A stretch of DNA of 64,000 nt from an uncultured delta proteobacterium (GTDB lineage: Bacteria; Desulfobacterota; Desulfobacteria; Desulfobacterales; QNYZ01), in contig CAWANO010000010.1 in NCBI GenBank assembly GCA_963783425.1, positions 613,472 through 677,471 of the forward strand, written 5' to 3'. Under the pieces are notes generated by a model, which had not been told where the DNA came from, ran no database searches, and was given only the letters and a program-made list of their open reading frames with translations. Every line of letters begins with the position of its first letter. Positions within the stretch are counted from its first letter, which is position 1. Below are positions 2,680 to 56,735 of this stretch, one piece after another. The translations under genes and the position numbers were made by a program.

Positions 2680-2970
2680 ATGACTTCGCCGGAATCAATC
2701 GCCTTAAACGATGTGCCCGACACCAACACCGGTTATCGCCTGGAAGAGTTTGACGGAGAACTGGTCCTCTATCACAGCACCGCCACCCAGGTGCTCTACC
2801 TCAACGAGACGGCGGCCCTGGTGTGGCGCTTGTGCGATGGCAAACGCACCGTGGAAACCATTTGTGCCCTCCTGAAAGAGGCCTATCCAAACACGGCCGA
2901 TCAAATCGAACACGATGTCGCCGCCACCGTGGCCGACCTGGTTCACTCGGGCGCGCTGACCCTGCGATGA
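2680..2970 (+). CDS. PqqD-family peptide-binding (RRE-type) protein
   Basis: This 96-aa protein contains 'LVLYHSTATQVLYLNETAALVWRLCDGKRTVETICALLKEAYP...IEHDVAATVADLVHSGAL', the typical PqqD winged-helix pattern. Its stop overlaps the next start (ATGA). Confidence 0.8.
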   Translation: MTSPESIALNDVPDTNTGYRLEEFDGELVLYHSTATQVLYLNETAALVWRLCDGKRTVETICALLKEAYPNTADQIEHDVAATVADLVHSGALTLR

Positions 2971-23923: not shown

Positions 23924-23940
23924 ACGGGAAAAATAGAGAT

Positions 23941-26383
<2,443 letters not shown>

Positions 26384-26531
26384 ACGTAAATGGTATAATC
26401 TTGTTTTGTCGTTTTATAAAGCGGGTTGATATTTCAGGTGCCCACCCATAAACAGTCGCGCATGCACAACGGCAAACCATCCATCCAGTTCACTACAATC
26501 CCGTCTCAACTGGTTCGTTTGGGAAAAGGCC

Positions 26532-27215: not shown

Positions 27216-27334
27216 CACGATTTTACTTGCCTTTCGAAAATTTCGGTTTTATGGTAATGTAATGGACGCTGTAACCATATAGACGTTAACATTTTCTGGA
27301 TTAGGTAGCTGCTACTGAGTGAAAGGAGAATAGC

Positions 27335-28336: not shown

Positions 28337-28378
28337 GGTAACAGCCAGCGTCTCAGCGTAAACAAGCCTAAAACAAAA

Positions 28379-28411
28379 GCCCCCTTTCCCTAAGGAGAGG
28401 GGGCTTTTGTT
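28379..28411. terminator. bidirectional Rho-independent terminator between convergent genes
   Basis: GCCCCCTT (10-nt loop) GAGGGGGC is followed by TTTTGTT. An A-rich tract lies on the other side. Confidence 0.7.
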
Positions 28412-28474
28412 ATGGTTCATCACCCCCGTGGGGGCGCCAAGCATGGCTTTCCCAAAATTCATGCCATTTCGGGG

Positions 28475-29851
28475 CTAAAACTCGATACTGCCCGGCGTGC
28501 GCGGAAAGGGGATGACATCGCGAATATTGACGATACCGGTCACCAGCATCACCAGCCGCTCGAAGCCCAACCCGAAACCGCTGTGGGGCACGCTGCCGTA
28601 GCGGCGCGACTCCAGATACCACCAGTAGGGCTCCTTGGGCAGATCCAACTCGGCCATGCGCGTTTCGAGCATAGTTAGGCGCTCCTCGCGCTGGCTACCA
28701 CCGATGAGTTCGCCCACCTCCGGCACCAGCACATCCATGGCCGCCACGGTGCGGTTGTCGTCATTGAGGCGCATATAAAAGGGCTTGATAGTCTTGGGAT
28801 AATCATGGACGATGACGGGGCGTTTGAAATGGTGTTCGGTCAGGTATTTTTCGTGTTCGCTCTGCAGGTCGTTGCCCCAAGCGGCCGGGTAGGCGAATTT
28901 ATGTTTGGCGCGCTCCAAAATATCCACCGCTTCGCTGTAGGGCAGGCGTACAAAATCGTTGTCGATGATATTGTCCAAACGCTGTTGTAAGCTTCTATCG
29001 ACAAAACGGGCGAACAGCTCGATATCCTCAGCGCAGTGGCGCAGGGCGTAATCGGCCAGATAGCGCACTATCTTCTCGCCCAGATCCATGTTCCCGGCGG
29101 CATCGCAGAAGGCCATTTCCGGTTCAACCATCCAGAATTCGGCCGCATGGCGGCGTGTATTGGAATTTTCTGCTCGAAAGGTCGGACCGAAGGTGTAGAC
29201 GTCGCCCAGGCTGAGCGCGAACATCTCCGCTTCCAGCTGTCCAGAGACGGTCAGATTGGCCTCCTGGCCAAAAAAGTCGGCTGAAAAATCGGCCCAGGCG
29301 CCATCTTTGGGCGAGAGGTTGCTGACCCGGAACATCTCTCCGGCACCCTCGCAGTCCGATCCGGTGATGATTGGCGTGTGGATGTAGCGAAAGCCATGCT
29401 CGTGGAAAAAATGGTGGATGGCATAGCACAGTTCCGAGCGGATGCGAAAAACCGCCCCGTATTTGTTGGTGCGTGGCCGCAGATGGGCGATGGTGCGCAG
29501 GTACTCATCGCTGTGGCGTTTTTTCTGCAAGGGATACTCGGCCGGCGCCGATCCGATCAATACCACCTTGTCGGCTTTGACCTCCCATAACTGTCCTTTG
29601 CCAGGCGAAGCCACCAGGGCGCCCTGCACCGAAACGGCCGCGCCCGTACCGATATTTTTCATTTCGGCATAGGTGGGAAGATCACCGTCCACCACCACTT
29701 GAATGTTTTTCAAACAGGAACCGTCGTTGATCTCGAGAAAAGAGAAGCCCTTGGCATCTCGCCGCGTGCGTATCCAACCTTTTAGCAAGATCTTATCCCT
29801 CGCCGCCGGCGCATTGAGTAACTGATTGATTTTACTTGTTTCGATAGTCAT
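28475..29851 (-). CDS. asnS: asparagine--tRNA ligase
   Basis: It is a class IIb aaRS with an OB fold ('GWIRTRRDAKGFSFLEINDGS'). AsnRS-type motifs are 'FRVS', 'TFGPTFRAENS', 'GGSQRE' and 'GFGLGFERL'. Confidence 0.9.
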   Translation of the reverse strand: MTIETSKINQLLNAPAARDKILLKGWIRTRRDAKGFSFLEINDGSCLKNIQVVVDGDLPTYAEMKNIGTGAAVSVQGALVASPGKGQLWEVKADKVVLIGSAPAEYPLQKKRHSDEYLRTIAHLRPRTNKYGAVFRIRSELCYAIHHFFHEHGFRYIHTPIITGSDCEGAGEMFRVSNLSPKDGAWADFSADFFGQEANLTVSGQLEAEMFALSLGDVYTFGPTFRAENSNTRRHAAEFWMVEPEMAFCDAAGNMDLGEKIVRYLADYALRHCAEDIELFARFVDRSLQQRLDNIIDNDFVRLPYSEAVDILERAKHKFAYPAAWGNDLQSEHEKYLTEHHFKRPVIVHDYPKTIKPFYMRLNDDNRTVAAMDVLVPEVGELIGGSQREERLTMLETRMAELDLPKEPYWWYLESRRYGSVPHSGFGLGFERLVMLVTGIVNIRDVIPFPRTPGSIEF

Positions 29852-31242
29852 ATGGGTACCGTTAGATTGTAGAGTTGATTGTTGCGTTGCACCAGTAACA
29901 CCACCGATGGGTGATGGCGATATTTGACCAGGGTTTTGCGCAAGAGTTGGCTGGAATCGACGCGGATATCGTTGATTTGGCGAATAATATCGCCCGGACG
30001 CACACCGATGCGGGCCAGTTCGCTACCGGTATCCACCTGGGTGATCATGACCCCGCCGCCTTCGTTTGATGCCTCCGCCACCGTGATGCCCAGCAGCAGG
30101 TGTGGCAACCGTGCGACCAGCTCTTCGGGGAAATCGGCTGTGATCACGGATACTTTCCGGGAGGCGCCATTGCGCCAGAGGCGGATATTGAGGGATTGCC
30201 CGGCGGAAAATCTTTTGATCAGCAAGCGGTAAGCGTTGGTCGAGGGCAACGGGCGGTCGTCGATGGCCAGAACCACATCGCCCTCGACGATGCCGGCCAG
30301 CCCGGCGGGGCTGTCGGGGAAAACGGACTTAACCACCAGCCCGCCGTCGCGGTATTCACTTTCTGGCAGCTTCAGGTAGTTGATCAGGGTGTCGTCCAGG
30401 GGCTGCAGGGTCAGGCCAAGCCAGACTGGCACCACCTCGCCATGGGTAATGAGGTCGGCGATAATCTTGCGAGCCTGGGCCACAGGGATGGCGAAACCAA
30501 TGCCCTGAGCCTTGGCGTAGATAGCCGTGTTGATGCCGATCAACTCACCGGTGATGTCGAGCAGCGGACCACCGCTGTTGCCTGGGTTGATCGAAGCGTC
30601 GGTTTGGATGAAGTCACGGTGCACATAGCGGTCGGTTCGAATGGTGCGGTTGAGAGCGCTGATGACACCCGTGGTGACCGAGTTGGAAAAACCGAAAGGG
30701 TTTCCGATGGCGATCACCGTCTCTCCGATAAGCAGCTTGCGATCGGCGCCCAGAGCGACAGATGGGAGGGGCTCTTGCGAGGCGATGCGCAGCACTGCCA
30801 GGTCGGATTCCGGGTCAACACCCACGATCTCGGCCTCGAACTGGCGCTGGTCTTGCAGCATGACCGATATTTGGGCGGTGTTGTCGATCACATGGGCGTT
30901 GGTGAGAATGAATCCTTTTTGACCATCGATGATTATGCCGGACCCCAGGCTGGCGCGCTGAGGGCGGGGTTCGTAGCCCGGTTCGAAAAAATCCTTAAAA
31001 AAAGAGTCGAAAAAGGGATTGAGGCCTAAGCCCGGAAACGGCGAGCGGCGAAGGTTTTGCTGACGGGCCGTGCTGATATTGACCACGGCTGGTCCCACCC
31101 GCTGAACGGCCTTGACGACGGGGGTTTCGTAGATGGTCTGGTTAACGTCGCTTTGGGCAATTGCCAGACCCGTTAAGAGCAGTGACGCTAAAAATGCGTT
31201 GAAAACGCTTGCAATATTGATTTTTAGGTGTGGTTTTGACAT
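29848..31242 (-). CDS. DegP/HtrA-family periplasmic serine protease with two PDZ domains
   Basis: 'TNAHV', 'DLAVLRI' and 'GNSGGPLL' form the catalytic triad context. Two PDZ-like segments follow. The signal peptide starts at the ATG at 31242; the track ORF begins at the GTG at 31278. Confidence 0.85.
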   Translation of the reverse strand: MSKPHLKINIASVFNAFLASLLLTGLAIAQSDVNQTIYETPVVKAVQRVGPAVVNISTARQQNLRRSPFPGLGLNPFFDSFFKDFFEPGYEPRPQRASLGSGIIIDGQKGFILTNAHVIDNTAQISVMLQDQRQFEAEIVGVDPESDLAVLRIASQEPLPSVALGADRKLLIGETVIAIGNPFGFSNSVTTGVISALNRTIRTDRYVHRDFIQTDASINPGNSGGPLLDITGELIGINTAIYAKAQGIGFAIPVAQARKIIADLITHGEVVPVWLGLTLQPLDDTLINYLKLPESEYRDGGLVVKSVFPDSPAGLAGIVEGDVVLAIDDRPLPSTNAYRLLIKRFSAGQSLNIRLWRNGASRKVSVITADFPEELVARLPHLLLGITVAEASNEGGGVMITQVDTGSELARIGVRPGDIIRQINDIRVDSSQLLRKTLVKYRHHPSVVLLVQRNNQLYNLTVPI

Positions 31243-31283
31243 AATAAATCTTTTTTTAATTATCACAGATAGCCTCACATACC

Positions 31284-33845
31284 ATGCCCGATACCGTGCT
31301 TCAAGACATCCTGAGCGGTGTGCGCCAGCCCAGCCGTTACCTGGGTCACGAGGTGAACCATATGCGCAAGGATCCTCAAAGCGTGCGCCTGAAGGTGGCC
31401 TTGGCCTTTCCCGATCTTTATGAGATAGGCACCTCTCACTTCGGCCTTCAGATTCTCTACAGCTTGCTCAACGCGCGCCCGGAAATCGCAGCGGAACGCG
31501 TTTTTGCACCTGATCTGGATATGGAGGCACAGCTGCGCCGCTACAGGCGACCGTTGATGAGTCTCGAATCGAAGCGGCCCTTAGATCAATTCGACATAAT
31601 CGGCTTTAGCCTGCTCTCAGAGCTCAACTACACCAATGTGCTATACATGCTCGATTTGGCACGGATACCGTTTCGGGCTGAGCATCGTGAACAGTGCCAC
31701 CCCCTGGTGATTGCCGGCGGGCCCTGTATGTTCAACCCGGAGCCGGTGGCGGACTTTTTCGACGCCATTGTTGTCGGTGACGGCGAAGAGGCCATCCTGG
31801 CCATGGCCGATGCCTGGCTGATGTGGCAAACCGAGGGAGATGGATATCGCAAGAGCCTGTTGCAGCAGTGGCGGGGCGTTGCCGGGGTTTACATCCCTGC
31901 CTTCTACGAGACCACATTCGATGGTAAGGGCCTGCCGCACACCGCACCGCGCGATCGGTCCCGGACCGGCGTCCGCCGGGCGATCTTATCCGACCTGGCC
32001 AAAATACCCCCTCCGGACGACCCCATCGTGCCCTATGGTCGGCCGGTTCATGACCGCCTGCGGGTGGAGGTGGCGCGGGGGTGCACGCGCGGGTGCCGGT
32101 TCTGCCAAGCGGGCATGATCTACCGTCCGGTTCGCGAACGTTCGCTGGGCAACCTGCTTGATTATACCACCAGGGCGCTGGGCAACACCGGTTTTGACGA
32201 GTTGTCGCTGCTCTCCCTGAGCACCGGTGATTACAGCTGTATCGAACCCTTGATGACCCGGCTTGGCGAGCGGTTTACGCGGCAGCACAACGCCATCAGT
32301 TTGCCATCATTGCGGGTGGACACTCTTTCCGACGAAATGATCGACTTGATCAAGTCGGTGCGCAAGACCGGTTTTACCATGGCCCCCGAGGCCGGCAGCC
32401 AGCGGCTGCGCGACGTCATCAACAAGAATATCCGCCAAACGGAAATTTTTGATACGGTCAGGCGGGTGTTTGAACATGGCTGGCGGCTGATCAAGCTCTA
32501 TTTCATGATCGGGCTGCCCACCGAGCGTGACACCGACCGGGCCGCCATTGCCGAACTGGCTCGAGAGCTGCGCCATATTCGGATGTCTCACCTGAAATCG
32601 CCCCCGGCATTGAACATCAGCGTGGCCACCTTTATTCCCAAGGCACATACACCCTTTCAATGGATGGCCCAAATGGCGCCGGATGAGGCCACGGATGCGC
32701 TGGAGCGGCTCAGGGCGCAGGTTAAACGCACGGGCGCCCGCTTCAAATGGCAGGATCCACTGACCAGTTATCTTGAGGGTGTTTTTTCACGCGGCGATCG
32801 GCGCTTGTCGCACCTGCTCGAAAAAGCCCACGCACTGGGGTGTCGCTTCGATGGCTGGAGCGACCACTTCGATTTCGAGCGCTGGCAGAGCGCCATGACC
32901 CAAAGCGGTGTTGATCCGGCCTTTTACACCACCCGCCGCCGGAATCTTGACGAGCCCCTGCCATGGGAGCATATCGATTCCGGGGTGAGCAAGGCTTATC
33001 TTGGCGATGAGTTGACGCGGGCGCTGGCCGGTGATCTAACCCCAGACTGCCGATTGGGACAGTGCAATCAGTGCGGGGTTTGCGATTTCGACACGATTGC
33101 TCCGGTGGTGCACACTTGTGAGACCCCAACGCCCACCGGTGCGGCAACGGAACCGGTGAATGCGCGCGCCGAGGGCACGCCGGCCCAAACCCTGCGGATC
33201 ACCTTCACCAAGACAGGGTCAGCCCGGTTCTTCGGCCACCTGGAGATGGTCAACATATTCACGCGTGCCCTGAAGCGCAGCCGGGTATCGGTGGCGTTCA
33301 GCCATGGATTTCACCCCAAACCCAAGATCCGCTTCGAGGATTCGTTGCCGGTGGGAATGGAGAGTCTGGCCGAAAGCATGTGGGTACAGGTGGTTTGCCC
33401 GGTGGACCCCCAAGCTCTTGCGACGATGCTCAACGGCACGCTTCCCCCGGGGTTGGCCGTTGTTGGTTGTCGGGTGAGCTCATTGCAGCGCAGCAAAACC
33501 AATGCCGAGCCGGTTACCTACCACATTCAACGCAACCAGGGGCGCTTTGAGAAAGCGGCCCTGAAGCGCTTCAACGACGCGGCGCAATGGGTGGCTGAAA
33601 AATCAAGTCCCAAGCGACCCGCACGGCGCATCGATCTCAAAGCGGCCGTAGGTGCCTTACACCTGTTGGCCGATGACACCCTTTGTATGACCTTGAAACC
33701 CAGCGGGGAGGCGCTGGTGCGGCCGGCCCTGGTGCTGGGCGCCCTGTTCGGGCTCAGCCCGCTGGAGATTACGCAGTTACGCATCGTCAAGCAACCATTG
33801 GCGCAACCCAGCAAGGATGGCATTCAGGCATGTTACGGCAATTGA
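31284..33845 (+). CDS. B12-binding-domain radical SAM protein fused to a radical-SAM-associated C-terminal domain
   Basis: 'VEVARGCTRGCRFCQAG' is the CxxxCxxC cluster. The N-terminal part is B12-binding-like. The C-terminal ~230 aa ('LRITFTKTGSARFFGHLEMVNIF') resembles the DUF2344-type partner domain. Confidence 0.8.
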   Translation: MPDTVLQDILSGVRQPSRYLGHEVNHMRKDPQSVRLKVALAFPDLYEIGTSHFGLQILYSLLNARPEIAAERVFAPDLDMEAQLRRYRRPLMSLESKRPLDQFDIIGFSLLSELNYTNVLYMLDLARIPFRAEHREQCHPLVIAGGPCMFNPEPVADFFDAIVVGDGEEAILAMADAWLMWQTEGDGYRKSLLQQWRGVAGVYIPAFYETTFDGKGLPHTAPRDRSRTGVRRAILSDLAKIPPPDDPIVPYGRPVHDRLRVEVARGCTRGCRFCQAGMIYRPVRERSLGNLLDYTTRALGNTGFDELSLLSLSTGDYSCIEPLMTRLGERFTRQHNAISLPSLRVDTLSDEMIDLIKSVRKTGFTMAPEAGSQRLRDVINKNIRQTEIFDTVRRVFEHGWRLIKLYFMIGLPTERDTDRAAIAELARELRHIRMSHLKSPPALNISVATFIPKAHTPFQWMAQMAPDEATDALERLRAQVKRTGARFKWQDPLTSYLEGVFSRGDRRLSHLLEKAHALGCRFDGWSDHFDFERWQSAMTQSGVDPAFYTTRRRNLDEPLPWEHIDSGVSKAYLGDELTRALAGDLTPDCRLGQCNQCGVCDFDTIAPVVHTCETPTPTGAATEPVNARAEGTPAQTLRITFTKTGSARFFGHLEMVNIFTRALKRSRVSVAFSHGFHPKPKIRFEDSLPVGMESLAESMWVQVVCPVDPQALATMLNGTLPPGLAVVGCRVSSLQRSKTNAEPVTYHIQRNQGRFEKAALKRFNDAAQWVAEKSSPKRPARRIDLKAAVGALHLLADDTLCMTLKPSGEALVRPALVLGALFGLSPLEITQLRIVKQPLAQPSKDGIQACYGN

Positions 33846-35398
33846 TCATCAATGAAAATATTCATGAAACGCGTGTGGCGCTTTTGGAAGACGGCACCAT
33901 CGTGGAGCTGTTCATCGAGCGCGGCGACGACAGCGAGATCACCGGCAATGTCTACAAAGGTGTTGTTCAGCGGGTACTGCCCGGCATGCAGGCGGCCTTC
34001 GTGGATATCGGCCTCGATCAGGCGGCCTTTATACATGTAGGCGATATCAACGGCCACCATCCCGATGTCGGCTTCAGTGCGCCTGACACCCAGCTCGAAG
34101 AGGCGGCCCATGAAGGCGCCCTCCCGCTTGGGGACGAAGTGGCGGAAGTCGGCAGCAGCGCGCAGGGCCGCCGTCCCATCGAAGAGTTGTTGTTCGAGGG
34201 GCAGCAGATCCTGGTGCATGTCATCAAGTCCCCTCTGGGTCATAAAGGTCCCAGGGTAACCACCTACGTCTCTTTGCCGGGCCGATTTCTGGTGCTGATG
34301 CCCCATTCCGACCATGTGGGTATCAGTCGCAAAATCGAAGATGAGGCCGAACGCCAGCGCCTCAAAGAGGCAATGAACCAGCTGCGTGAGGATCAATGCG
34401 GCTACATCGTACGCACGGCCGCCGAGGGGACGGCTCCGGAAAAACTGGCCGACGAGATGCGTTTTTTACGCAGCCTCTGGGAATCGATCCAGCAAAAATT
34501 TAAAACCGCATCGGCCCCGGCACGATTGCACAAGGAGCTCAACGTGAGCCTGAGGGCCGTGCGTGACCTGCTCACCAACGAAGCTGAAAAAGTGGTCACC
34601 GACTCTCAAAACGTGTACGACTCGGTGCTCTCTTTCCTTAGCACCTACATGCCCACCCTGAAAGACTCCATCACGCTCTACCAGGGCCCCGAGCCGCTCT
34701 TTGACGCATACAATCTGGAGGGGGATATATCGCGGACGTTGAAACGAAAAGTGTGGCTGAAGTCGGGCGGGTACGTCGTTATCGAGCAGACCGAGGCCTT
34801 GTGCGCCATCGATGTCAACACCGGCCGCTATGTGGGCAAGCACAATTTGGACGAAACTATCTTGAAGACCAATCTGGAGGCCGTCAAGGAGATCGCCTAC
34901 CAGCTGCGCCTGCGGGACATCAGCGGCATCATCATCATCGATTTCATTGATATGGAAAAAAAGGCCAATCAGATCAAGGTCTACAATGCCCTCAAGGAGC
35001 GCCTGCGCCTGGACCGTAGCAAAACCCACGTGTTGCCTATTTCGGAGCTGGGTCTGGTCCAGATGACCCGTAAGCGGGTGCGCCAGCCACTCACCAACCT
35101 GATGTCGGAACCCTGTTTTTACTGCGAGGGCGAGGGTCATCTGCTCTCGCGACGTTCGATTTGTTACGCGATCTACAGGGAGGTGCTGCGCGAAGCGTGG
35201 GACCTGCCGGGCAATGGCATCACTTTGCGGGTCAATCCCGAGATCGCCGAACTGCTCTATCACGAGGAACAGCGCCTGATCGACTCTCTTGAGAAACGGG
35301 TGGGCAAAAAGATCGAAATATATCCCAACGAAAAGTACCATCTGGAACAGTTCGATCTTTTTGAAGTTTTAGATATTGACAAACCTAAAACTTTTTGA
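33830..35398 (+). CDS. rng: Rne/Rng-family ribonuclease (RNase G-like)
   Basis: From the ATG at 33830 the protein reads 'MLRQLIINENIHETRVALLEDG' (S1 domain start). It also has 'GNVYKGVVQRVLPGMQAAFVDIG', 'IDVNTG' and 'GIIIIDFIDM'. The gene overlaps the upstream gene's end by 16 nt. Confidence 0.85.
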   Translation: MLRQLIINENIHETRVALLEDGTIVELFIERGDDSEITGNVYKGVVQRVLPGMQAAFVDIGLDQAAFIHVGDINGHHPDVGFSAPDTQLEEAAHEGALPLGDEVAEVGSSAQGRRPIEELLFEGQQILVHVIKSPLGHKGPRVTTYVSLPGRFLVLMPHSDHVGISRKIEDEAERQRLKEAMNQLREDQCGYIVRTAAEGTAPEKLADEMRFLRSLWESIQQKFKTASAPARLHKELNVSLRAVRDLLTNEAEKVVTDSQNVYDSVLSFLSTYMPTLKDSITLYQGPEPLFDAYNLEGDISRTLKRKVWLKSGGYVVIEQTEALCAIDVNTGRYVGKHNLDETILKTNLEAVKEIAYQLRLRDISGIIIIDFIDMEKKANQIKVYNALKERLRLDRSKTHVLPISELGLVQMTRKRVRQPLTNLMSEPCFYCEGEGHLLSRRSICYAIYREVLREAWDLPGNGITLRVNPEIAELLYHEEQRLIDSLEKRVGKKIEIYPNEKYHLEQFDLFEVLDIDKPKTF

Positions 35399-35405
35399 TC
35401 ATAAT
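35376..35405 (+). promoter_or_regulatory. candidate sigma70-type promoter for rpmH-rnpA
   Basis: TTGACA (35376-35381), an 18-nt spacer and CATAAT (35400-35405) lie about 78 nt upstream of the rpmH ATG in an AT-rich spacer. This is sequence resemblance only. Confidence 0.3.
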
Positions 35406-35482
35406 TAATGTTTATATTTATGACATCAGAGATAAACTCGACACTTAAACTTGTTTCAGGATAATTATAGAGGACATATAAG

Positions 35483-35617
35483 ATGAAACGCACCTATCAG
35501 CCCAGTCGTATCAAGCGGGCACGAAAGCATGGTTTTTTAAAACGGATGTCGAGCAAGCAGGGGCGTCGCGTTATCAATCGTCGGCGGGCCAAAGGGCGCA
35601 AGCGGTTGGCCGTGTGA
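35483..35617 (+). CDS. rpmH: 50S ribosomal protein L34
   Basis: This gene is not in the ORF track because it is under 60 aa. It translates to [44 protein letters not shown]. Confidence 0.95.
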
Positions 35618-35979
35618 TCGAAGCCGGACAGCGATTTCGCAAAAGCGAGCGATTGCGAAAACGGCATGAATTCACCCATTTGACCCGTAGTGGATATCAG
35701 TGCCAGGATCGGAATTTTATCATTCGCTATGGGGTCAACGACTACGACCGCGCACGCCTTGGCGTCACCGCGACAAAGCGCATCGGCGGCGCCGTCACCC
35801 GCAATCGCCTCAAACGGGTTTTACGTGAATTTTTCAGAACCCATCGATTTCGGGTGGCCATCGGCGTTGATTACAACATCATCGTCAAAAGCGGTGCTGT
35901 AACACTGACGACCGACCAAATTTTCAAAGCGCTCGAAGCGCTGTTTGATGAGATTTCCAATCGGATCAACACTGCATAA
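35614..35979 (+). CDS. rnpA: ribonuclease P protein component
   Basis: The start overlaps the rpmH stop. The basic protein reads '[12 protein letters not shown]...[23 protein letters not shown]'. Confidence 0.85.
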
Positions 35980-36193
35980 CGTCACCATCCAGCTCTTTCT
36001 GGGTGCGATTCGGACCTACCAACTAGCCCTGTCGCCCTTGTGGGGCCCGACGTGCCGATTCCACCCAAGCTGCTCCGAATATGCTCATCAAGCCATAGCC
36101 CGTTACGGACTTTCCAAGGGATTTTATCTGGCGGTACGACGGCTGCTGAAATGCCACCCATTTCACCCCGGGGGTTATGATCCTTTACCGTAA
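35945..36193 (+). CDS. yidD: membrane protein insertion efficiency factor YidD
   Basis: 'YQLALSPLWGPTCRFHPSCSEYAHQAI...LLKCHPFHPGGYDPLP' is the YidD signature. The exact start is uncertain. Confidence 0.85.
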   Translation: MMRFPIGSTLHNVTIQLFLGAIRTYQLALSPLWGPTCRFHPSCSEYAHQAIARYGLSKGFYLAVRRLLKCHPFHPGGYDPLP

Positions 36194-36330
36194 ATCTGTT
36201 TAAATTTAATTATCTGGAATAGTTAAGAACATCACTTTTTTAGGCGTAGTGACAAGGCCAGCCGGCACGGCCGAGCCCGAACGATTCAATGCCAATGACG
36301 GCCACAGATGAGCGTAAGTGAGGAAAACCG

Positions 36331-38007
36331 ATGGAGCAAGGACGGCTGATATTAGCGATCGCCCTGTCATTACTCATATTTTTGGCGTGGGATTTTTTCT
36401 TTGTAAAGCCGCAACAATCCCCTCCCCAGCAGGCCCAAGAGACCGCCACCCCAAAAGCGACCCAGGAACCGGTTCAAAGCCCGACCTTACCAGCCCCTGA
36501 ACTGGCGCCGGTGACCGCCCCGGCGGCCGATCAAACCGTCGCGCAAACACCGCCCCAGGCGGTTGCCGGGCGTAGCTACAGCGTGGAGACCCCGCTTTTA
36601 AAGGCCGAGATATCCGAAAAAGGGGCCGTTATCACCCAGCTCACCTTAAAAAACTACCGAGAAGAAGCCCGCCATGATTCTCCTTTAAAAGCGTTGATTT
36701 CCGAACAAAATACGTTGGGCAGCGTGCTGACCCAGTTTACCGAAAAGAGTGTTGTCGGTCTGGATGGAGCTGTTTTTCGAAGCGATAGTCCGGCTGCACA
36801 GATCGCCATTAAAGAGGGGCAGCAAACGCTGACCTTCACCTGGCGCTCGCCGCAAAACATTGTGATTGAAAAGCGCTTTACCTTCAAGGCCGACAGCTAC
36901 CTGATCGATTATGGTGTGACGGTCAAAAACGAAAGCGAGCAGCCCTTTCAAGACCGCCTGGCCGTGGCGCTGGTCAAATACGATGAGAGCGATAAAAGGG
37001 CCTACGGGTTTCAAGGCCCCAGCGGTCTGATAAACGGGTCACTGCAACAGGTCAAGAAGAAAAACATCGCCGAGCATGAACCCATCAACGGCGACATCGC
37101 CTGGGTCGCCATCCAGGAACGCTACTTTTTAAGCAGTATTATACCAGCCAGCCCGGCAGATCGCACCATGGCGCTGGACCTGGTGGGCGAACAGTTGATC
37201 GTCAACCGCTTGGTGAGTCCGCCCACCACCTTCAATCCCCAGGGGGAGAAGGTGTTCGATTATCAGCTCTTTTTCGGGCCTAAAAGCTTACGGCTGCTGC
37301 GGGAGTTAAACAACGATCTGGCCAAAGCGGTCAATTTCGGGATGTTCGATTTTCTGGCCAAACCCTGTTTGTGGTTGATGAATTTCATCTACGACCACGT
37401 GGTTTCCAACTACGGTATCGCCATCATCATTCTCACCCTTCTGACCAAACTGGTGTTGTGGCCGCTGGGCAACAAGAGCTACAAATCGATGGGCGAGATG
37501 AAGAAGATCCAGCCCTTGATGACCGAAATTCGCGAAAAATACAAGGATGATAAGAAGAAACAAAACGAAGAGATCATGGCCCTCTACCGGACCTACAAGG
37601 TTAACCCCATGGGCGGTTGCTTGCCGATGGTGGTCCAAATTCCTATCTTTTTCGCGCTTTACCGAATGCTCTACGAAGCCATCGAGCTGCGACATGCCCC
37701 GTTTTTCGGGTGGATCAACGACCTTTCGGCACCGGACCGCTTGTTTGATTTCGGATTTTCGATCCCGCTCATGCAGCCGCCCTACGGCATTCCCGTATTG
37801 ACACTTTTGATGGGGGCGAGCATGTTTTTACAGCAGAAAATGCAACCGGCCATGGGTGACTCGACGCAAGCCAAGATGATGATGCTGATGCCCATCTTTT
37901 TCACCGTTATTTTTGTCAATTTTTCCGCCGGGTTGGTGCTTTACTGGCTTGTAAATAACGTGGTTTCCATCGGCCAACAATTTTATGTGCAGCGCAAACG
38001 CGCGTAG
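36331..38007 (+). CDS. yidC: membrane protein insertase YidC
   Basis: It has an N-terminal TM helix, a large periplasmic domain, and a conserved C-terminal core ('KMQPLMTEIREKYKDDKKKQNEE', 'GCLPMVVQIPIFFALY'). Confidence 0.9.
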   Translation: MEQGRLILAIALSLLIFLAWDFFFVKPQQSPPQQAQETATPKATQEPVQSPTLPAPELAPVTAPAADQTVAQTPPQAVAGRSYSVETPLLKAEISEKGAVITQLTLKNYREEARHDSPLKALISEQNTLGSVLTQFTEKSVVGLDGAVFRSDSPAAQIAIKEGQQTLTFTWRSPQNIVIEKRFTFKADSYLIDYGVTVKNESEQPFQDRLAVALVKYDESDKRAYGFQGPSGLINGSLQQVKKKNIAEHEPINGDIAWVAIQERYFLSSIIPASPADRTMALDLVGEQLIVNRLVSPPTTFNPQGEKVFDYQLFFGPKSLRLLRELNNDLAKAVNFGMFDFLAKPCLWLMNFIYDHVVSNYGIAIIILTLLTKLVLWPLGNKSYKSMGEMKKIQPLMTEIREKYKDDKKKQNEEIMALYRTYKVNPMGGCLPMVVQIPIFFALYRMLYEAIELRHAPFFGWINDLSAPDRLFDFGFSIPLMQPPYGIPVLTLLMGASMFLQQKMQPAMGDSTQAKMMMLMPIFFTVIFVNFSAGLVLYWLVNNVVSIGQQFYVQRKRA

Positions 38008-51214: not shown

Positions 51215-54200
51215 TTGACCATTAAATCCAAAGCGTTGACCGAGAACCTGATGGAGCACCAGGTTCTCGTGTCGATCGACCCCAAATATCTGCCCCTGCA
51301 AGCGGTGTTGTCCAAGTATTACGGGATTATGGAGGGGGCCAACAACTTCCTGACCGAACTTTCCCACCCCTATCGCAACTGGCAGTTTATCGTACAGGAG
51401 TCGCGCAGCTACGCGCTGGACTATTTCCACCTTTTCGTCTCCCATCCATTAGGCCCGGAAGCGGCAACCTTGTTCGTGGACATCTATTTCGAGGCCCTGG
51501 CCAAAAGCGCCCAAGAGGCGGTCAGAGAGGATGCCTGCAACCACCTGCTGCTCTTTTTGCAGAAGATGATTCGCAGCGCCGGGGAGAATTTTCCGCGCTT
51601 TAAGCCGGTGCTGGACGCGGCCTTCGAGCGCATCTCGCACCAGCCGGAGAACGCCTTTTTTCTCTTTGTGCGTGGCTACTATCAAATCAAGCGGCTGGCC
51701 GAGGCGTACCTTGCCGCCAGCCAGCGCAGCCCTCAGGGGTATGCGGCCATCAACACGCTTTTAGCGCGATACTACCGGCAAACCTATGCCTATTGGCGCG
51801 CCGAGGAGGATCCGGGAAATTGGTTCAGCCGGCGCCGTAATGACAGCGAAGGCCTTACCGCCCGGGAGGCGTTTTTCAAGCCGGTCTCTCACGAGCGGCT
51901 GGCGGCGGCTCAGCGCCGTCTGGCGGCGATTGAAAAGCAGGCCGAGGCACCAACGTTACAACGGCTTGAGCAGCTGCTGACCCTGCCCAGCTTCGGTCAG
52001 ATCGTGGAGGCTTACCGGCGCATCCCCGGTCACCTGGCCGCGCTTGGTCAGCAAAGCGGCAAAGGCAATCAGTGGAAAGCGATCTTTCTGTTCCATATCA
52101 TGAACATCTCCGGTTTGGCCGTTATCCACGAAGAGGCCCTGCGGGAGATCAACCGCACCCTGAGCTGGCTAATCGCCCACGAACCTTATCGCAACGTGCG
52201 CCTGCTGATCGAAAACACCTTCGCGATACTCAAATCGCGGGCCGACCAGTTTCCCACAACCGCCCTCAGTTGCGTGCAAAACATGGGCATGGGGGTTTAC
52301 AAGACCGACGAGCGCGATCTGGTGAACGTCTTCATCGATGAGATTATCGACCTGGGATTTCAGGTACCGCGCATCGGCGGCGTGGGCGATGACTGGCAGA
52401 TCAAGTCCAACAGCGCTCACCTCCTCAACATCCGCGCCTGGCTGGAGTTGATCAAACTCAACCCGCGCTGGTCGTTGCGGCTGCTTTCGGGCCTGATCAT
52501 CCACCTGGCCGTGGCGGGTGTGCTCATCAAAGACACCGACCTTTTTTTCCGTGATATCACCGAATTGCTCAACAGCCGCATCGATCCGGTCTATAACCAG
52601 ATCAAGCAGTTGATGCGCCTGCTGCCGGTATTTTTTAACGATATCGGCGCCGAGGGTGACCTGCGCGACATCTCCACCGAAATCGACGAGTTGACCCAGC
52701 GCAAGGACATCTTAATCCACTTTCTGCGCAAACAGAGCCACGTCGAAAGCAGCAACCGCACCCTGAGCCTGATCATGGGGGTGATCGAGTTTTGGCGCAC
52801 GGGGGAAAAGGCGCCCCTGGCGGCCATGGTGCCGCCCCGGGTCTTTGAGCAGATCCGCACGCGCGGCCGTTACATCGACGGCGTGCGCCGTGCACTGCGG
52901 CACATGGAATCCCAAGGCATACACCTGCCCGATGACCTGCTGACCAGAGAGGCGGCGCAGATCGAGGCCTTGCTCGGGCAGGCCGAAGGTGTCGGTGTTC
53001 AGGATGCGCGGCGGGTGGTGTTGCTGGCCACCTTTTACAAGCTGCTCGACCAGAAATACAGCCTGGGCTTTGCGCGTCTAAACGCCTATGTGGACCAGCT
53101 CAAACCTGAGGTTTCCATCCATCTTGGCCGACTTAAAAAGGCGCTGAAGATTTCAGACACGCGACCGCGACTGGTGGCCATGCTCGAGTATCTGGAGCTG
53201 CTCAAAGAGATGATCCTCTCCGAGGAGCACTTCGAGGTGCGCGAAGACATTTACAAAAAACGCCACTTCGCCATCGACATCCCCTCCATGTATGGCAGCT
53301 ACCATGAACGCAAGTTCGATGCCATGGGGCTGATGCTGCGCCTGGAGAGCCAGGTCAATGTGCTCTTCGAAACGCTGGTGGCGGAGATTGATTTGAAATT
53401 GATCACGCGGGCCACCTTTTACGACATTCATGCCGTCTTGAGCCTTTTCGCCCGGGCCCTGCGCTGTGACGGCATGCCGGTGGTGGAATTCGAGCGCCTG
53501 CTCAGTTTCCTCTACCACTCCCTGCAAGTGACCGGTTTTACCTTCACCCAGTACCTGGATATATTCAAAGGGTTCGCCCGGGCGGTCCGCAACATCATCA
53601 ACGACTGCTTTCACAACATTCACGAGCAGAACCTGGCCAAAATTCTGGCCACGCTGCCCCGTTCCGAATGGCTGCCGAAATATCAGGATTTCGGCCCGCA
53701 ACGGTCCGACGATGAGAAAGCACGCCATCGCGTCTCGGAGATTTTTTTCCGCGATCGCATCGCCGCCACCCTGGGGCTTCAGCAGCTGGACCAGTTCCTG
53801 ACCCGGATTTTAAACACGCTATACCACCAGTTTCAGGAGTTGCCGCGCGCCAAGAGCCGCGAACTGCTGCGCTACGACCACCAGCGCGCCGTGGCCCCTT
53901 TGAACAAGGTCGATGCCCGCATTCCCGGCATCATCCACCTGGGCAACAAGGGTTACAACCTGGTCAAGTTGCTCGAAAACGACATTCCCGTGCCGCCGGG
54001 TTTCATCATTACCACCGAGGTGTTCAAATACCGCGAGATCATCAAGGCCTACCCCCCCGCACTGGAGGACCTCAAGGCGCAAATGCTGCATCACATCAAG
54101 GGGTTGGAGGGCAAGCTCAACAAGCGCTTCGGCGATCCCGAACATCCGCTGCTCTTTTCGGTGCGTAGCGGCGCCTCCATTTCGCAGCCCGGGATGATGG

Positions 54201-55399
54201 ACACTTTTTTAAATGTCGGCATGAACGAACAGATCGCCCGCGGCCTGGCCGCCCAGACCCGCAATGTCTGGTTCGCTTGGGACAACTACCGCCGCTACCT
54301 GCAGTGCTACGGCATGTCGCTGGGCATGACTCGCGACCACTTCGATTCGATCATCAGAGGCTACAAGGGCCAGCTGAAAATCCCCCTGAAACGCTTCATG
54401 ACCGGCGAGCAGATGCAAACCTTGGCTCTCAAGTACAAAGAGAGCATCGAGGCGGCCGGGCACAAGGTGCTCGAAGAACCGCTGGATCAGCTCTTTATGG
54501 CCATCGAATGCGTGTTTGATTCGTGGTACAGCGCCAAGGCCAACACCTACCGCCGTATCATGGACATCTCCGACGACTGGGGCACAGCGGTCACCGTTCA
54601 GCATATGGTCTACGGCAACCTTTCCCGGCAATCCGGCTCGGGTGTGGTGATGACCCACAACCCCCGCTGGGCAGGTGACACCCTGCGCTTGTGGGGCGAT
54701 TTTACGATCGGTAACCAGGGCGAAGACGTGGTGGCGGGGCTGGTGAGCACGCTGCCTATCTCCATCACCCAGCAAGAGATCGAGATGCGTGACACCGACA
54801 TCACGCTCGAAACCCACTTCCCGGAGATCTACGAGGCGCTCAGGCAGTGGGCGATCCTGCTGACCGAGCATCAGGGATGGAGCCCCCAGGAGATCGAGTT
54901 CACCTTCGAGGGCCCCAAGGCCTCCCAGCTATACGTGCTGCAGTGTCGTGATATGTCGGTGCGTGAGCACAAGATCGCGCGGCGCTTTCCCGAGGGTGCC
55001 CTAAAGATCGAAAATTTTCTGGGCAACGGCGTTGGCGTGAGCGGCGGCGCCATGAGCGGCCGGGCGGTCTTTGAACTAAAGGAGATCGAACGCTGGCATC
55101 AGGCTGAGCCCGACACCGACCTGATTTTGCTGCGTAACGACACCGTTCCCGACGATATTCGCGAAATATACGCCGCCGACGGGTTGCTCACGGCCCGGGG
55201 CGGCATGACCTCCCACGCCGCGGTGGTGGCCAACCGCCTGGGCAAGACCTGCGTGGTGGGGTGCGACAACCTCTTTTGCGACGAGGACCGGCACTGGTGC
55301 ACCCTCGGCGACCAGAAGATTCAATCGGGCGACTTTATCAGCATCGACGGCTACGGCGGCGCCGTCTATCGGGGCCGTGTGGCCGTGGATGGGGATTAA
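51215..55399 (+). CDS. large protein: ~890-aa unknown N-terminal region plus a PPDK-type ATP-grasp and phospho-histidine swivel domain, with no PEP/pyruvate-binding barrel
   Basis: From about nt 53900 it reads 'GNKGYNLVKLLENDIPVPPGF', 'LFSVRSGASISQPGMMDTFLNVGMN', 'YRRIMDISDDWGTAVTVQHMVYGN' and 'LLTARGGMTSHAAVVANRLGKTCVVGC'. The protein ends 63 aa after the TSH histidine. The start codon (TTG at 51215 or ATG at 51251) is uncertain. Confidence 0.7.
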   Translation: MTIKSKALTENLMEHQVLVSIDPKYLPLQAVLSKYYGIMEGANNFLTELSHPYRNWQFIVQESRSYALDYFHLFVSHPLGPEAATLFVDIYFEALAKSAQEAVREDACNHLLLFLQKMIRSAGENFPRFKPVLDAAFERISHQPENAFFLFVRGYYQIKRLAEAYLAASQRSPQGYAAINTLLARYYRQTYAYWRAEEDPGNWFSRRRNDSEGLTAREAFFKPVSHERLAAAQRRLAAIEKQAEAPTLQRLEQLLTLPSFGQIVEAYRRIPGHLAALGQQSGKGNQWKAIFLFHIMNISGLAVIHEEALREINRTLSWLIAHEPYRNVRLLIENTFAILKSRADQFPTTALSCVQNMGMGVYKTDERDLVNVFIDEIIDLGFQVPRIGGVGDDWQIKSNSAHLLNIRAWLELIKLNPRWSLRLLSGLIIHLAVAGVLIKDTDLFFRDITELLNSRIDPVYNQIKQLMRLLPVFFNDIGAEGDLRDISTEIDELTQRKDILIHFLRKQSHVESSNRTLSLIMGVIEFWRTGEKAPLAAMVPPRVFEQIRTRGRYIDGVRRALRHMESQGIHLPDDLLTREAAQIEALLGQAEGVGVQDARRVVLLATFYKLLDQKYSLGFARLNAYVDQLKPEVSIHLGRLKKALKISDTRPRLVAMLEYLELLKEMILSEEHFEVREDIYKKRHFAIDIPSMYGSYHERKFDAMGLMLRLESQVNVLFETLVAEIDLKLITRATFYDIHAVLSLFARALRCDGMPVVEFERLLSFLYHSLQVTGFTFTQYLDIFKGFARAVRNIINDCFHNIHEQNLAKILATLPRSEWLPKYQDFGPQRSDDEKARHRVSEIFFRDRIAATLGLQQLDQFLTRILNTLYHQFQELPRAKSRELLRYDHQRAVAPLNKVDARIPGIIHLGNKGYNLVKLLENDIPVPPGFIITTEVFKYREIIKAYPPALEDLKAQMLHHIKGLEGKLNKRFGDPEHPLLFSVRSGASISQPGMMDTFLNVGMNEQIARGLAAQTRNVWFAWDNYRRYLQCYGMSLGMTRDHFDSIIRGYKGQLKIPLKRFMTGEQMQTLALKYKESIEAAGHKVLEEPLDQLFMAIECVFDSWYSAKANTYRRIMDISDDWGTAVTVQHMVYGNLSRQSGSGVVMTHNPRWAGDTLRLWGDFTIGNQGEDVVAGLVSTLPISITQQEIEMRDTDITLETHFPEIYEALRQWAILLTEHQGWSPQEIEFTFEGPKASQLYVLQCRDMSVREHKIARRFPEGALKIENFLGNGVGVSGGAMSGRAVFELKEIERWHQAEPDTDLILLRNDTVPDDIREIYAADGLLTARGGMTSHAAVVANRLGKTCVVGCDNLFCDEDRHWCTLGDQKIQSGDFISIDGYGGAVYRGRVAVDGD

Positions 55400-55472
55400 C
55401 GATTGATGGCAAGGCCATCGTAACCACCGGGGGACGGCGCCCGTTGGCGCGGCCACCGGCCAAGGAGGACTC

Positions 55473-56735
55473 ATGGCAGCTCCAGAGTTGAACTTCAGTG
55501 AACTCAAATTGGGCATCAACGGTCTAGGCCGCATTGGCAAGCTGACCCTCTGGCACCATGTGGGGCGTAAATTTTTCAAGCAGATCGTGGTCAACCTGGG
55601 GCGTCCGGCCGGTCGCTCCCTGCACGACATCGCCTATCACTACATCGAGCGCGACTCCACCTATGGCCGCTTGGGTGGCTATCTCTATGGATTCCGTTCC
55701 AAGCCGGTTATCAGTGACATCGATGAGGCGGCCGGTACCATGCAAATCGACGGGGTTTTGGTCAAATTTCTACTCAAGCACCGCAATCCGCGGGAGATCG
55801 GCTGGCAGAAAGAGGATGTGCGTCTTGTGGTGGACACCACCGGCCGCTTTCTCGATCCCAGCTTGCCGCCCGAGCAGGCCGGTGGCGCGGTGCGCGGCCA
55901 CCTGGAGGCCGGGGCTGAAAAAGTGGTGTTGTCGGCACCCTTTAAAATGGCCGATCAAGCCAGCCTGCCCGAAGACGCCATCACCACCGTGATGGGCATC
56001 AACGACAGCAGTTACGATCCACGCCACCACCGCATCATCTCCAACGCCTCCTGCACCACCACCTGCCTGGCCCAAATGATCAAGCCGCTGTTGAACGTGT
56101 TCGGCCCGCAGAAGATTCTCTCGGCCTCGATGGCCACCGTGCATGCGGCCACCAGCTCCCAGGCCGTACTGGATCGGTTGCCCAAGGCCGGAAAAGAGGA
56201 CCTGCGTAAAAACCGCAGCACCATGAACAACATCATTCTCACCACCACCGGCGCGGCCAAGGCGTTGCGGCTGGTGATCCCCGAGATGGCCGAGATCGGC
56301 TTCATCGCCGAGTCGGTGCGGGTGCCGACGGTCTCCGGTTCGCTGATTATTCTGGTGGTCAACCTGCAGGACGATCCTTCCGGCCAGTCCATCCGCCGCA
56401 ACATGATCAACGATATCTACCGCGACGCCGTGGCGGCCGATACCAATGGATACCTGATCTTTTCAGAGCGGCAGAACGTCTCCAGTGACATTGTGGGGTT
56501 GCCGCGGGCGGCAGCCATCATTGAAGGCAGCGAAACCCACACCCGCACGGCTGAGGTAAGGATCGATCTGGTCAATGTGCCCGGCATCGATCCGGAGCTG
56601 GTGGCCCGTTTCTCGGATACGGTCATCCGCACACCGGTGACCCAGGCCGTCATTTACGGCTGGTACGACAATGAGCTGGGCAGCTATGTCAATATGTTGG
56701 GAGACCGGGTGGTGAGCGTTGCTGAAAATATGTAG
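55473..56735 (+). CDS. glyceraldehyde-3-phosphate-dehydrogenase-like oxidoreductase, long (420 aa) variant
   Basis: AGGAGG RBS lies upstream. It has 'LGINGLGRIGK', the catalytic 'SNASCTTTCLA', and 'YDNELGY'-like 'WYDNELGSY'. Several insertions are present relative to canonical ~335-aa GAPDH. Confidence 0.8.
   Translation: MAAPELNFSELKLGINGLGRIGKLTLWHHVGRKFFKQIVVNLGRPAGRSLHDIAYHYIERDSTYGRLGGYLYGFRSKPVISDIDEAAGTMQIDGVLVKFLLKHRNPREIGWQKEDVRLVVDTTGRFLDPSLPPEQAGGAVRGHLEAGAEKVVLSAPFKMADQASLPEDAITTVMGINDSSYDPRHHRIISNASCTTTCLAQMIKPLLNVFGPQKILSASMATVHAATSSQAVLDRLPKAGKEDLRKNRSTMNNIILTTTGAAKALRLVIPEMAEIGFIAESVRVPTVSGSLIILVVNLQDDPSGQSIRRNMINDIYRDAVAADTNGYLIFSERQNVSSDIVGLPRAAAIIEGSETHTRTAEVRIDLVNVPGIDPELVARFSDTVIRTPVTQAVIYGWYDNELGSYVNMLGDRVVSVAENM

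Follow-up and report, generated by a model that had tools for sequence, protein, structure and literature searches.

What can a protein do that keeps the nucleotide-binding and phosphohistidine domains of pyruvate, phosphate dikinase (PPDK) but lacks the TIM barrel for phosphoenolpyruvate (PEP) and pyruvate, and whose gene is followed by one for a glyceraldehyde-3-phosphate dehydrogenase (GAPDH)? The question is raised by a 64,000-nucleotide stretch of DNA (the window) from an uncultured delta proteobacterium of the Desulfobacterales (GenBank assembly GCA_963783425.1, contig CAWANO010000010.1, positions 613,472 to 677,471), in which a giant gene for a 1394-residue protein and a GAPDH gene lie in tandem. 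Our analysis points to a probable step of central carbon metabolism that has not been described before, its enzyme being mislabelled in databases as PPDK. The giant protein is likely a swivel-histidine phosphotransferase with a new acceptor domain, and a functional coupling to the GAPDH encoded beside it is about as likely. The features of the locus are as follows.

51215 to 55399, + strand: giant dikinase gene, 1394 amino acids plus stop, TTG start
51215 to 53905, + strand: N-terminal domain, residues 1–897, proposed phosphoryl-acceptor or partner-binding domain
52394 to 52753, + strand: conserved block 1 of the N-terminal domain, residues 394–513
53240 to 53320, + strand: conserved β-hairpin, residues 676–702, motif KRHxAxxIPSMYGxYxExKFD
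53927 to 54979, + strand: PPDK-type ATP-grasp nucleotide/Pi-binding domain, residues ~905–1255 (Pfam, NCBIfam, PPDK alignment)
55082 to 55384, + strand: swivel phosphohistidine domain, residues ~1290–1390, with the His1334 codon at 55214–55216 within GGMTSHAAVVA
55462 to 55469, + strand: ribosome-binding site AAGGAGGA of the GAPDH gene, three bases ahead of the ATG
55473 to 56735, + strand: partner GAPDH gene, 420 amino acids plus stop, Gp_dh_N and Gp_dh_C (Pfam)

The giant protein and its N-terminal domain

Translation of the giant gene from the TTG codon is in line with its homologues, whose alignments begin at residues 1–3. A Pfam scan of the 1394 residues located PPDK_N (PF01326) at 955–1255 (E 7.8e-34) and the PEP-utilizers mobile domain (PF00391) at 1302–1382 (E 1.8e-18), with no match to the TIM barrel PEP-utilizers_C (PF02896). 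The last 494 residues align with residues 18–509 of Clostridium symbiosum PPDK (E 4.5e-88), the ATP-grasp domain corresponding to residues 18–340. The motif GGMTSHAAVVA at 1329–1339 identifies the catalytic phosphocarrier histidine as His1334, which is at least 97% conserved across 57 family members. An earlier note, made from the sequence alone, had placed a PPDK ATP-grasp and a T-S-H swivel domain in the last ~500 residues and had found the PEP/pyruvate barrel absent; Pfam, NCBIfam and the PPDK alignment agree on the former, and the latter is borne out by the missing PF02896 and by the repetition of the architecture in hundreds of homologues. The reading frame does stop shortly after the histidine as the note had it, although at 60 residues and not 63 (a trivial difference), at the point where the second linker of PPDK would start.

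The residues of the nucleotide and phosphohistidine sites have the following counterparts in C. symbiosum PPDK (numbering of the latter is chain index + 1).

K912: K22
R984: R92
G993/M995: G101/M103
E1226/E1228: D321/E323
Q1243/R1245: Q335/R337
H1334: H455

Apart from M995, for which no family-wide value was listed, each of these residues is invariant or conserved to at least 90% in the family. We take K22, R92, G101/M103, D321/E323 and Q335/R337 to be the residues to which mutagenesis of the C. symbiosum enzyme assigned roles in ATP and Pi binding. The PPDK modules of the giant protein look catalytically competent. The PPDK equivalog model TIGR01828 scores 391.3 bits against a cut-off of 843.45, with its best stretch at model positions 18–335 of 865, and the PEP synthase (PEPS) models of NCBIfam reach at most 93 bits. 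As TIGR01828 gives 391 bits and PEP synthase 93, the nucleotide module clearly belongs to the PPDK lineage (ATP + Pi → AMP + PPi, pyrophosphate) and not to that of the water-dikinases. The earlier note had compared the protein with X,water-dikinases and phosphotransferases; a dikinase or phosphotransferase with a different acceptor domain remains a sound description, with rifampicin phosphotransferase (RPH) as precedent, whereas the water-dikinase lineage does not hold.

The protein combines an ATP-grasp and a mobile His domain in one polypeptide with a third conserved domain, and by this arrangement of domains it is to be counted in the wider swivel-His dikinase superfamily, which includes PPDK, PEPS, RPH, glucan, water dikinase (GWD) and PigC. 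With PPDK (EC 2.7.9.1; C. symbiosum structure 1KBL), it has in common the ATP-grasp, the swivel His, the T-S-H motif and the ATP/Pi-site residues. It differs in having no TIM barrel, in the ~900-residue helical domain that precedes the ATP-grasp and in the linkage of its gene to GAPDH; because that domain comes first, the His domain stands at the C-terminus on a single tether. The closest anatomical match within the superfamily is RPH, which works by the logic proposed here for the giant protein. In RPH-Lm (5FBS/5HV1), a C-terminal swivel His shuttles between the ATP-grasp and a substrate domain without structural homologues, and RPH has been misannotated as PEPS or PPDK (PMC4844700). The substrate domain is central in RPH but N-terminal in the giant protein, and RPH is of the PEPS/water-dikinase lineage, its similarity to the giant protein being confined to the His domain (the rifamycin phosphotransferase model NF041857 gives 35.9 bits against a cut-off of 999, with only the His domain matching). 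Neither the RPH structure nor its RIF-binding domain is among the 50 listed fold matches of the N-terminal domain.

Pfam showed nothing credible in residues 1–900, and no known domain was found there in the Pfam and NCBIfam scans. The AlphaFold2 model of the N-terminal domain (102-sequence alignment; mean pLDDT 88.1, pTM 0.84) consists of ~45 helices and a single β-hairpin at 676–697, the tip of which (683–688) is the sole internal segment of low confidence. A Foldseek search of this model against the PDB returned only generic HEAT/ARM solenoids (karyopherins, Pds5B) with TM-scores of 0.09–0.16 and E-values of at least 1.8e-4, and because of these low scores and weak E-values we see no real structural relative among them. 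Searches of PDB sequences with phmmer and with a 57-sequence profile gave only designed helical repeats at marginal E-values. The ~890 residues that the earlier note called unrecognisable and helical are so on all these counts, without a Pfam or PDB relative and with a confident model that is all-helical apart from one hairpin; a known accessory domain, which the note had considered, was matched in none of Pfam, NCBIfam, the PDB sequences and Foldseek. As modelled, the ~900-residue domain is a new, confidently predicted fold without a Pfam family. A phmmer search with residues 1–900 against 1.84 billion cluster representatives (clusters at 50% identity) matched 584 clusters at E ≤ 1e-3 and 217 at E ≤ 1e-30. 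The domain was found in this architecture only, and we regard it as restricted to it because every complete matched member is 1335–1540 residues long.

Conservation within the N-terminal domain was measured in 57 full-length members and is concentrated in two places. The segments 401–500 and 651–700 have a mean column identity of 0.60–0.68; the ATP-grasp and His domains of the same members have 0.44–0.72, mostly at least 0.54. Block 1 contains the motifs DTDLF (440–444), GAEGxLRDxSTEIDE (478–492) and FLRKQSHVESS (503–513), and its invariant residues include H402, D440, R484, D491, R505, K506 and H509. In the hairpin, S691, G694, Y696 and E698 are invariant or nearly so, and K682, R683 and H684 adjoin the low-confidence, flexible tip. 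Down to 26% identity, the 57 sequences retain P471 and G481 together with the block 1 residues named above, and also K614, Y615, H684, S691, G694, G753, R846 and D859; K682, R683, Y696 and E698 are at least 90% conserved. About 20 polar residues of the domain are invariant over this range. Such a cluster of Arg, Lys and His with Asp and Glu, seven of the residues being basic, would suit a Mg-dependent phosphoryl-transfer site for a polyanionic substrate, and the degree of conservation would argue against a passive scaffold.

The family is large. A search of 5.8 billion proteins yielded hundreds of full-length homologues of 1380–1430 residues with the same two Pfam domains, 56–62% identical to the query in Desulfobacterales, related metagenome-assembled genomes (MAGs) and Desulfonema ishimotonii, and a second search with a Nitrospiraceae seed was just as productive in Thermodesulfovibrionales and Dissulfurispiraceae. 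The listed full-length homologues with the same domain order (~1380–1430 residues) number more than 240. Among the named members are Desulfotignum, a Myxococcota MAG and Magnetococcus marinus MC-1 (ABK44898.1, 1429 residues, finished genome). Desulfatirhabdium butyrativorans, like Desulfonema ishimotonii, is a named isolate with one or both genes of the pair. In all, the family comprises a minimum of 584 clusters (50% identity) and is represented in more than 559 metagenome loci; Thermodesulfobacteriota, Nitrospirota, Magnetococcia and Myxococcota all possess it, which marks it as old. Databases list its members under 'PEP/pyruvate-binding domain-containing protein' or 'pyruvate, phosphate dikinase', the latter being the name in IMG and NCBI, and the PPDK label is routine in genomes and MAGs of sulfate reducers and Nitrospirota. 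Literature searches for the giant family, the M. marinus accession and a PPi-dependent phosphoglycerate kinase (PGK) found no relevant publication.

Two giant homologues are themselves frameshifted: in locus L040 the tblastn match switches frame at ~9453, and the gene of L046 (1718–5979) is called as 598 + 67 + 754 residues. These are probably sequencing errors, or occasional pseudogenes. A frameshift that hides a downstream TIM barrel, a possibility named in the earlier note, was considered for the window and rejected, since hundreds of homologues have the same architecture and the full-length ones share the same end.

The partner GAPDH and the conservation of the pair

The GAPDH gene begins (ATG at 55473) after a spacer of 73 nt from the stop of the giant gene, and the spacer contains no terminator-like site. 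The earlier note had described a 420-residue GAPDH-like gene 73 nt downstream with a ribosome-binding site, the motif SNASCTTTC and several insertions; coordinates and alignments agree with this throughout, the motif lying at 190–198. Compared with canonical GAPDHs of ~330 residues, the protein has five or six insertions and is about 85 residues longer. The insertions are located after the β2 strand, in the 60s loop, ahead of the 'RGH' helix and of 'MPEDA', and within the S-loop; a further insertion of ~30 residues (ETHTRTA...PVTQA) stands ahead of the last strand and the C-terminal helix. The same insertions are found in the partner GAPDHs of Desulfobacterales, Desulfamplus, Nitrospiraceae, Magnetococcus and two further lineages.

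Cys194 and His224 (classical Cys149 and His176) are invariant in the partner GAPDHs of five lineages and in 50 close relatives. The equivalents of the Ps site (Thr227, Arg245 and Arg283; classical Thr179, Arg195 and Arg231) and of the Pi site (Ser193, Thr195, Thr259 and Gly260; classical Ser148, Thr150, Thr208 and Gly209) are all kept. The roles of the residues in these two anion sites are established in the GAPDH literature. With its catalytic Cys and His in place and the two phosphate sites intact, the partner reads as a genuine phosphorylating GAPDH for a C3-phosphorylated substrate and no generic aldehyde dehydrogenase. Its substrate is probably glyceraldehyde 3-phosphate (G3P)/1,3-bisphosphoglycerate (1,3-BPG), all catalytic and phosphate-site residues being retained, and here we depart from the earlier note, which had put no name to the substrate.

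In GAPDHs, Asp32 at the end of β2 confers the preference for NAD. At this position, the partner has Leu42 (Leu, Ile or Val in relatives), followed by an invariant Gly43-Arg44; as Asp32 is replaced and Gly-Arg follows, use of NADP(H) is plausible. The AlphaFold2 model of the partner (pLDDT 78) superposes on solved GAPDHs with TMt 0.79–0.85 (Foldseek). The top match is a Bacillus stearothermophilus D32G/L187A/P188S mutant, with Corynebacterium glutamicum L36S/T37K mutants lower in the ranking. According to the PDB titles, 1DBV is mutated at the Asp32 position and 8HRQ/8HRS/8HRT at the nearby positions 36/37, positions which we take to set the NAD/NADP preference; the mutants were presumably made to shift specificity towards NADP.

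The type I GAPDH model TIGR01534 gives 320 bits against an equivalog cut-off of 367.2, a shortfall due to the insertions and divergence, and the partner reads as a divergent subfamily of type I GAPDH narrowly under that cut-off. It has the fold, the catalytic Cys/His and the anion sites of type I enzymes, including the NADP-using B. subtilis GapB (8WWZ) and Synechococcus Gap2 (2D2I), from which it differs in the ~85 extra residues and in the replacement of Asp32 by Leu/Ile/Val with Gly-Arg following. The model of the ArsJ-associated GAPDH (NF033735) scores 171.9 bits against a cut-off of 450, and no arsJ-like transporter lies beside the pair in the loci examined.

The two genes, whose joint occurrence across genomes the earlier note had proposed to check, are strongly co-conserved. 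Among 34 genome loci, a same-strand GAPDH gene lies directly downstream, at 58–70% identity, in 21 of the 21 whose contig reaches past the giant gene. Of 80 metagenome loci, 63 could be determined, and the arrangement is the same in 61, with spacers mostly of 17–120 nt; the exceptions are L118, where a DctP-type binding-protein gene takes the place of GAPDH, and L124. Five of seven distant members also have GAPDH directly downstream, as listed below (identity of the giant protein to that of the window, then length of the downstream GAPDH).

Magnetococcus marinus MC-1: 35–39%, 411 amino acids
P0333: 27–30%, 402 amino acids
P0270: 32–36%, 409 amino acids
P0272: 28–31%, 420 amino acids
P0348: 28–32%, 381 amino acids

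The other two, P0275 and P0382, have no downstream GAPDH; the Myxococcota contig ends too early to show its downstream gene. The pairwise identities of giant protein and GAPDH are correlated (r = 0.96, 74 pairs). These data show that the gene pair is a conserved unit across phyla, probably a single functional module. When the look-up was reversed and started from partner-type GAPDHs, the giant gene was found upstream in two of three genomes. The third case is L043 (GCA_041299705.1, 5847–8260), where a partner-type GAPDH 71% identical to that of the window has no adjacent giant gene. It is preceded by a truncated nrdD (model positions 1–243 of 562) that overlaps the GAPDH start codon, and its downstream context is ksgA/PreP, as in the window. 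A deletion, rearrangement or misassembly may lie behind this arrangement.

The wider neighbourhood varies between lineages, and no conserved third gene was found beside the pair in the loci examined. In the window, the pair is flanked by a Bmp-type ABC transporter upstream and by ksgA, PreP and hisS downstream; these neighbours are absent from the 34 genome loci, and ksgA, PreP and hisS recur only in the near relatives L043, L044 and L046. In one large Desulfobacterales clade, acsB/cdhC, cdhD and acsE (pterin-binding methyltransferase) of the Wood-Ljungdahl carbonyl branch lie upstream of the pair and a qrc-like set (multihaem cytochrome c, molybdopterin oxidoreductase, FeS protein, NrfD) downstream, which is probably lineage synteny.

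L001, 223 to 4994, and equivalents in about 21 genome loci: acs/qrc-flanked pair
L004, 5969 to 10985: acs/qrc-flanked pair

The Magnetococcus pair adjoins sucA-sucB-lpd, that of L045 adjoins rnf, and downstream of that of L040 (P0272) comes a V-type ATPase operon. In 126 loci (1.5 Mb), neither pgk nor a second gap gene was found up to about 7 kb from the pair, and no riboswitch or known RNA was found upstream of the pair. Some distant members carry an extra N-terminal hemerythrin domain (P0275, 1540 residues; P0272, 1455 residues), which suggests an O2, redox or iron input.

L038, 1166 to 5788: hemerythrin-fused member P0275
L040, 6001 to 10368: hemerythrin-fused member P0272

A proposed reaction and its alternatives

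We propose that the ATP-grasp would use ATP + Pi to phosphorylate His1334, giving AMP + PPi, and that the swivel domain on its single linker would carry the phosphoryl group to a second active site in the N-terminal domain. This site would be formed by the conserved Arg/Lys/His/Asp cluster of the blocks 394–513 and 676–702. The acceptor would be the carboxylate of 3-phosphoglycerate (3-PG), according to 3-PG + ATP + Pi ↔ 1,3-bisphosphoglycerate + AMP + PPi, which would make the giant enzyme the PPi/AMP-linked counterpart of PGK. The labile acyl phosphate would be handed straight to the dedicated GAPDH, which probably accepts NADP(H) and whose family-specific insertions would provide a docking surface for the giant protein. 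The net gluconeogenic reaction would be 3-PG + ATP + NAD(P)H → G3P + AMP + PPi + NAD(P)+; in the reverse direction, ATP could be regained from the AMP + PPi that sulfate activation leaves behind.

In established pathways, a phosphorylating aldehyde dehydrogenase has for its partner the kinase that makes the acyl phosphate, as in PGK/GAPDH, Ask/Asd, ProB/ProA and ArgB/ArgC. Given this precedent and a GAPDH that keeps both phosphate sites, 3-PG would be the most economical acceptor. A phosphorylating GAPDH gene also adjoins that of an ATP-dependent phosphotransferase in gap-pgk operons, a parallel that is one of inferred function; the giant protein shares no sequence or fold with PGK and is predicted to work through phospho-His with ATP + Pi/AMP + PPi, not by direct ATP/ADP transfer. 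Textbook standard free energies are about −49 kJ/mol for 1,3-BPG hydrolysis and −46 kJ/mol for ATP → AMP + PPi. By our own estimate, the proposed reaction would lie near equilibrium, at roughly +4 kJ/mol, as compared with about +19 for PGK in the same direction, and PPi hydrolysis would pull it further. We also count in favour of the proposal that the neighbours in several lineages (acs, qrc-like, sucAB-lpd, rnf, V-ATPase) are central carbon and energy genes, and that neither pgk nor a second gap gene lies beside the pair.

Several points weigh on the other side. Most bacteria have pgk, which makes a simple replacement of PGK unlikely. The N-terminal domain resembles an α-solenoid, a shape commoner in protein-protein scaffolds than in small-molecule active sites, and the hemerythrin-fused variants hint at a sensory or regulatory input. 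The giant genes of L038, L042, L118 and L124 have no adjacent GAPDH, and to judge from these exceptions and from L043, each gene is apparently able to exist or function apart. A TIM-barrel-less PPDK that acts as a regulator and not as a metabolic enzyme is known in VadK (bioRxiv 10.1101/2025.10.30.685616). Taken as a whole, the statement that the giant protein is a swivel-His dikinase with a new acceptor domain, its own GAPDH and 3-PG as acceptor is tentative, and we put it somewhat short of an even chance. 3-PG/1,3-BPG as the acceptor, taken by itself, is possible but rather doubtful, and it is unlikely, though worth serious attention, that the enzyme is a '3-phosphoglycerate, phosphate dikinase' channelling its acyl phosphate to a dedicated NADP-GAPDH in an unrecognised reaction of central carbon metabolism. 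Acceptor identity, direction, complex formation and cofactor are what we infer for the pair.

The strongest rival is a regulatory kinase of the VadK kind, which we consider unlikely but well worth weighing. His1334 would be autophosphorylated, and the helical domain would serve as a scaffold or sensor through which the protein binds GAPDH or other enzymes in order to phosphorylate them or control them allosterically, tuning GAPDH flux to the energy charge (ATP, AMP, PPi, Pi) or to the redox/O2 status. VadK (Rv1127c, M. tuberculosis) is likewise a PPDK descendant in which the TIM barrel has been lost; it autophosphorylates its catalytic His in an ATP- and Mg-dependent manner, associates physically with central-metabolic enzymes, those of the methylcitrate cycle, and tunes their flux (bioRxiv 10.1101/2025.10.30.685616). 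The solenoid-like form of the N-terminal domain is typical of protein-binding proteins, the hemerythrin domain of some members would fit a sensor, the GAPDH insertions could form a docking surface under this reading too, and either gene can occur alone, as the partner GAPDH does in L043. The C-terminal module also gives 305.6 bits with the short-PPDK model NF004531 (PRK05878; 534 positions), which we take to be of the Rv1127c type. The cut-off of that model is 456 bits, however, so that the giant protein, with its additional ~900-residue domain, falls outside it. VadK has ~490 residues and no counterpart of this domain, is actinobacterial and is linked to the methylcitrate cycle instead of GAPDH. 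Invariant Arg, Lys, His and Asp in two short blocks, conserved to the level of the ATP-grasp, have the character of a catalytic site and not of a binding surface, and a 1:1 operon with spacers of 17–120 nt in most loci is more typical of enzyme partners.

A dikinase with some other small-molecule or polymer acceptor, whose sole tie to GAPDH would be 1,3-BPG or energy metabolism, is improbable. Examples would be transfer between 1,3-BPG and polyphosphate (the orphan EC 2.7.4.17) or the phosphorylation of an unrelated metabolite. The acceptors of the superfamily are diverse (pyruvate, rifampicin, glucans, phenol, prodigiosin precursors; PMC4844700 and the NCBIfam match list), EC 2.7.4.17 has never been purified or assigned to a gene (PMC5932413), and the many basic residues that are invariant would fit a polyanion too. 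Against this, no ppk, ppx or other consistent third gene occurs in the neighbourhoods examined, and a shared intermediate is the simpler explanation of the tight 1:1 linkage to GAPDH.

Two further readings are effectively excluded. A true PPDK, with the PEP/pyruvate function supplied in trans or by the N-terminal domain, has the database names and the strong PPDK similarity of the C-terminal 490 residues on its side but is very improbable, as the TIM-barrel domain (PPDK residues ~534–874) is absent, TIGR01828 reaches 391 of the required 843 bits over positions 18–335 only, no neighbourhood examined contains a PEP-utilizers_C gene and the N-terminal domain is all-helical and unrelated to the barrel. 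That a frameshift, gene fusion or assembly error produced the architecture has next to no probability in spite of an apparent frameshift elsewhere in the window (the split gyrB) and the frameshifted metagenomic homologues L040 and L046, given more than 240 listed full-length homologues with the same domain order, 584 clusters, the finished M. marinus MC-1 genome and a GAPDH gene that, 73 nt past the stop, leaves no room for a barrel.

Elsewhere in the window and the meaning of the pair

At 23941–26383, gyrB is split into two overlapping open reading frames, the first (23941–24951) with HATPase_c and the first half of DNA_gyraseB, the second (24896–26383) with the second half, Toprim and the C-terminal domain. 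The split points to a frameshift or indel around 24900–24950, either an assembly error or a real lesion, and shows that the assembly is not error-free. Because dnaN (22805–23923), gyrB and yidC (36331–38007) lie together at 22805–38007, the window is probably near the chromosomal replication origin. Three other genes are of note. On the − strand, 17516–20962 encodes a 1148-residue UvrD/REP-type helicase in which the helicase domains begin only at residue ~476, the ~470-residue N-terminal region having no Pfam match at E ≤ 1e-5. On the + strand, 2823–3860 encodes a 345-residue protein with a weak HPr-kinase C-terminal-like match just under the Pfam cut-off, and 31284–33845 an 853-residue radical SAM protein fused to DUF2344.

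The giant protein joins known catalytic modules to a new acceptor domain and to a new, deeply conserved GAPDH partnership. When metabolism is reconstructed from sulfate-reducing and sediment MAGs, the organisms are probably assigned a PPDK that is perhaps absent, and the real role of the enzyme is missed. The all but constant pairing with a specialised GAPDH gives a precise hypothesis on the PGK/GAPDH step, the thermodynamic bottleneck of gluconeogenesis. If it is true, this step would be more strongly driven, which would ease the bottleneck in anaerobes and autotrophs that build sugars from C1/C2 units; the beneficiaries would include autotrophs that use the Wood-Ljungdahl pathway or the reverse tricarboxylic acid cycle, and also complete oxidisers. 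Sulfate reducers, Nitrospirota and magnetotactic cocci would gain driven gluconeogenesis or the recovery of ATP from AMP + PPi, and the giant enzyme would be to PGK what PPDK is to pyruvate kinase and PPi-dependent phosphofructokinase to its ATP-dependent counterpart. Should the 3-PG hypothesis not hold, the pairing would instead indicate a new way in which GAPDH is regulated.

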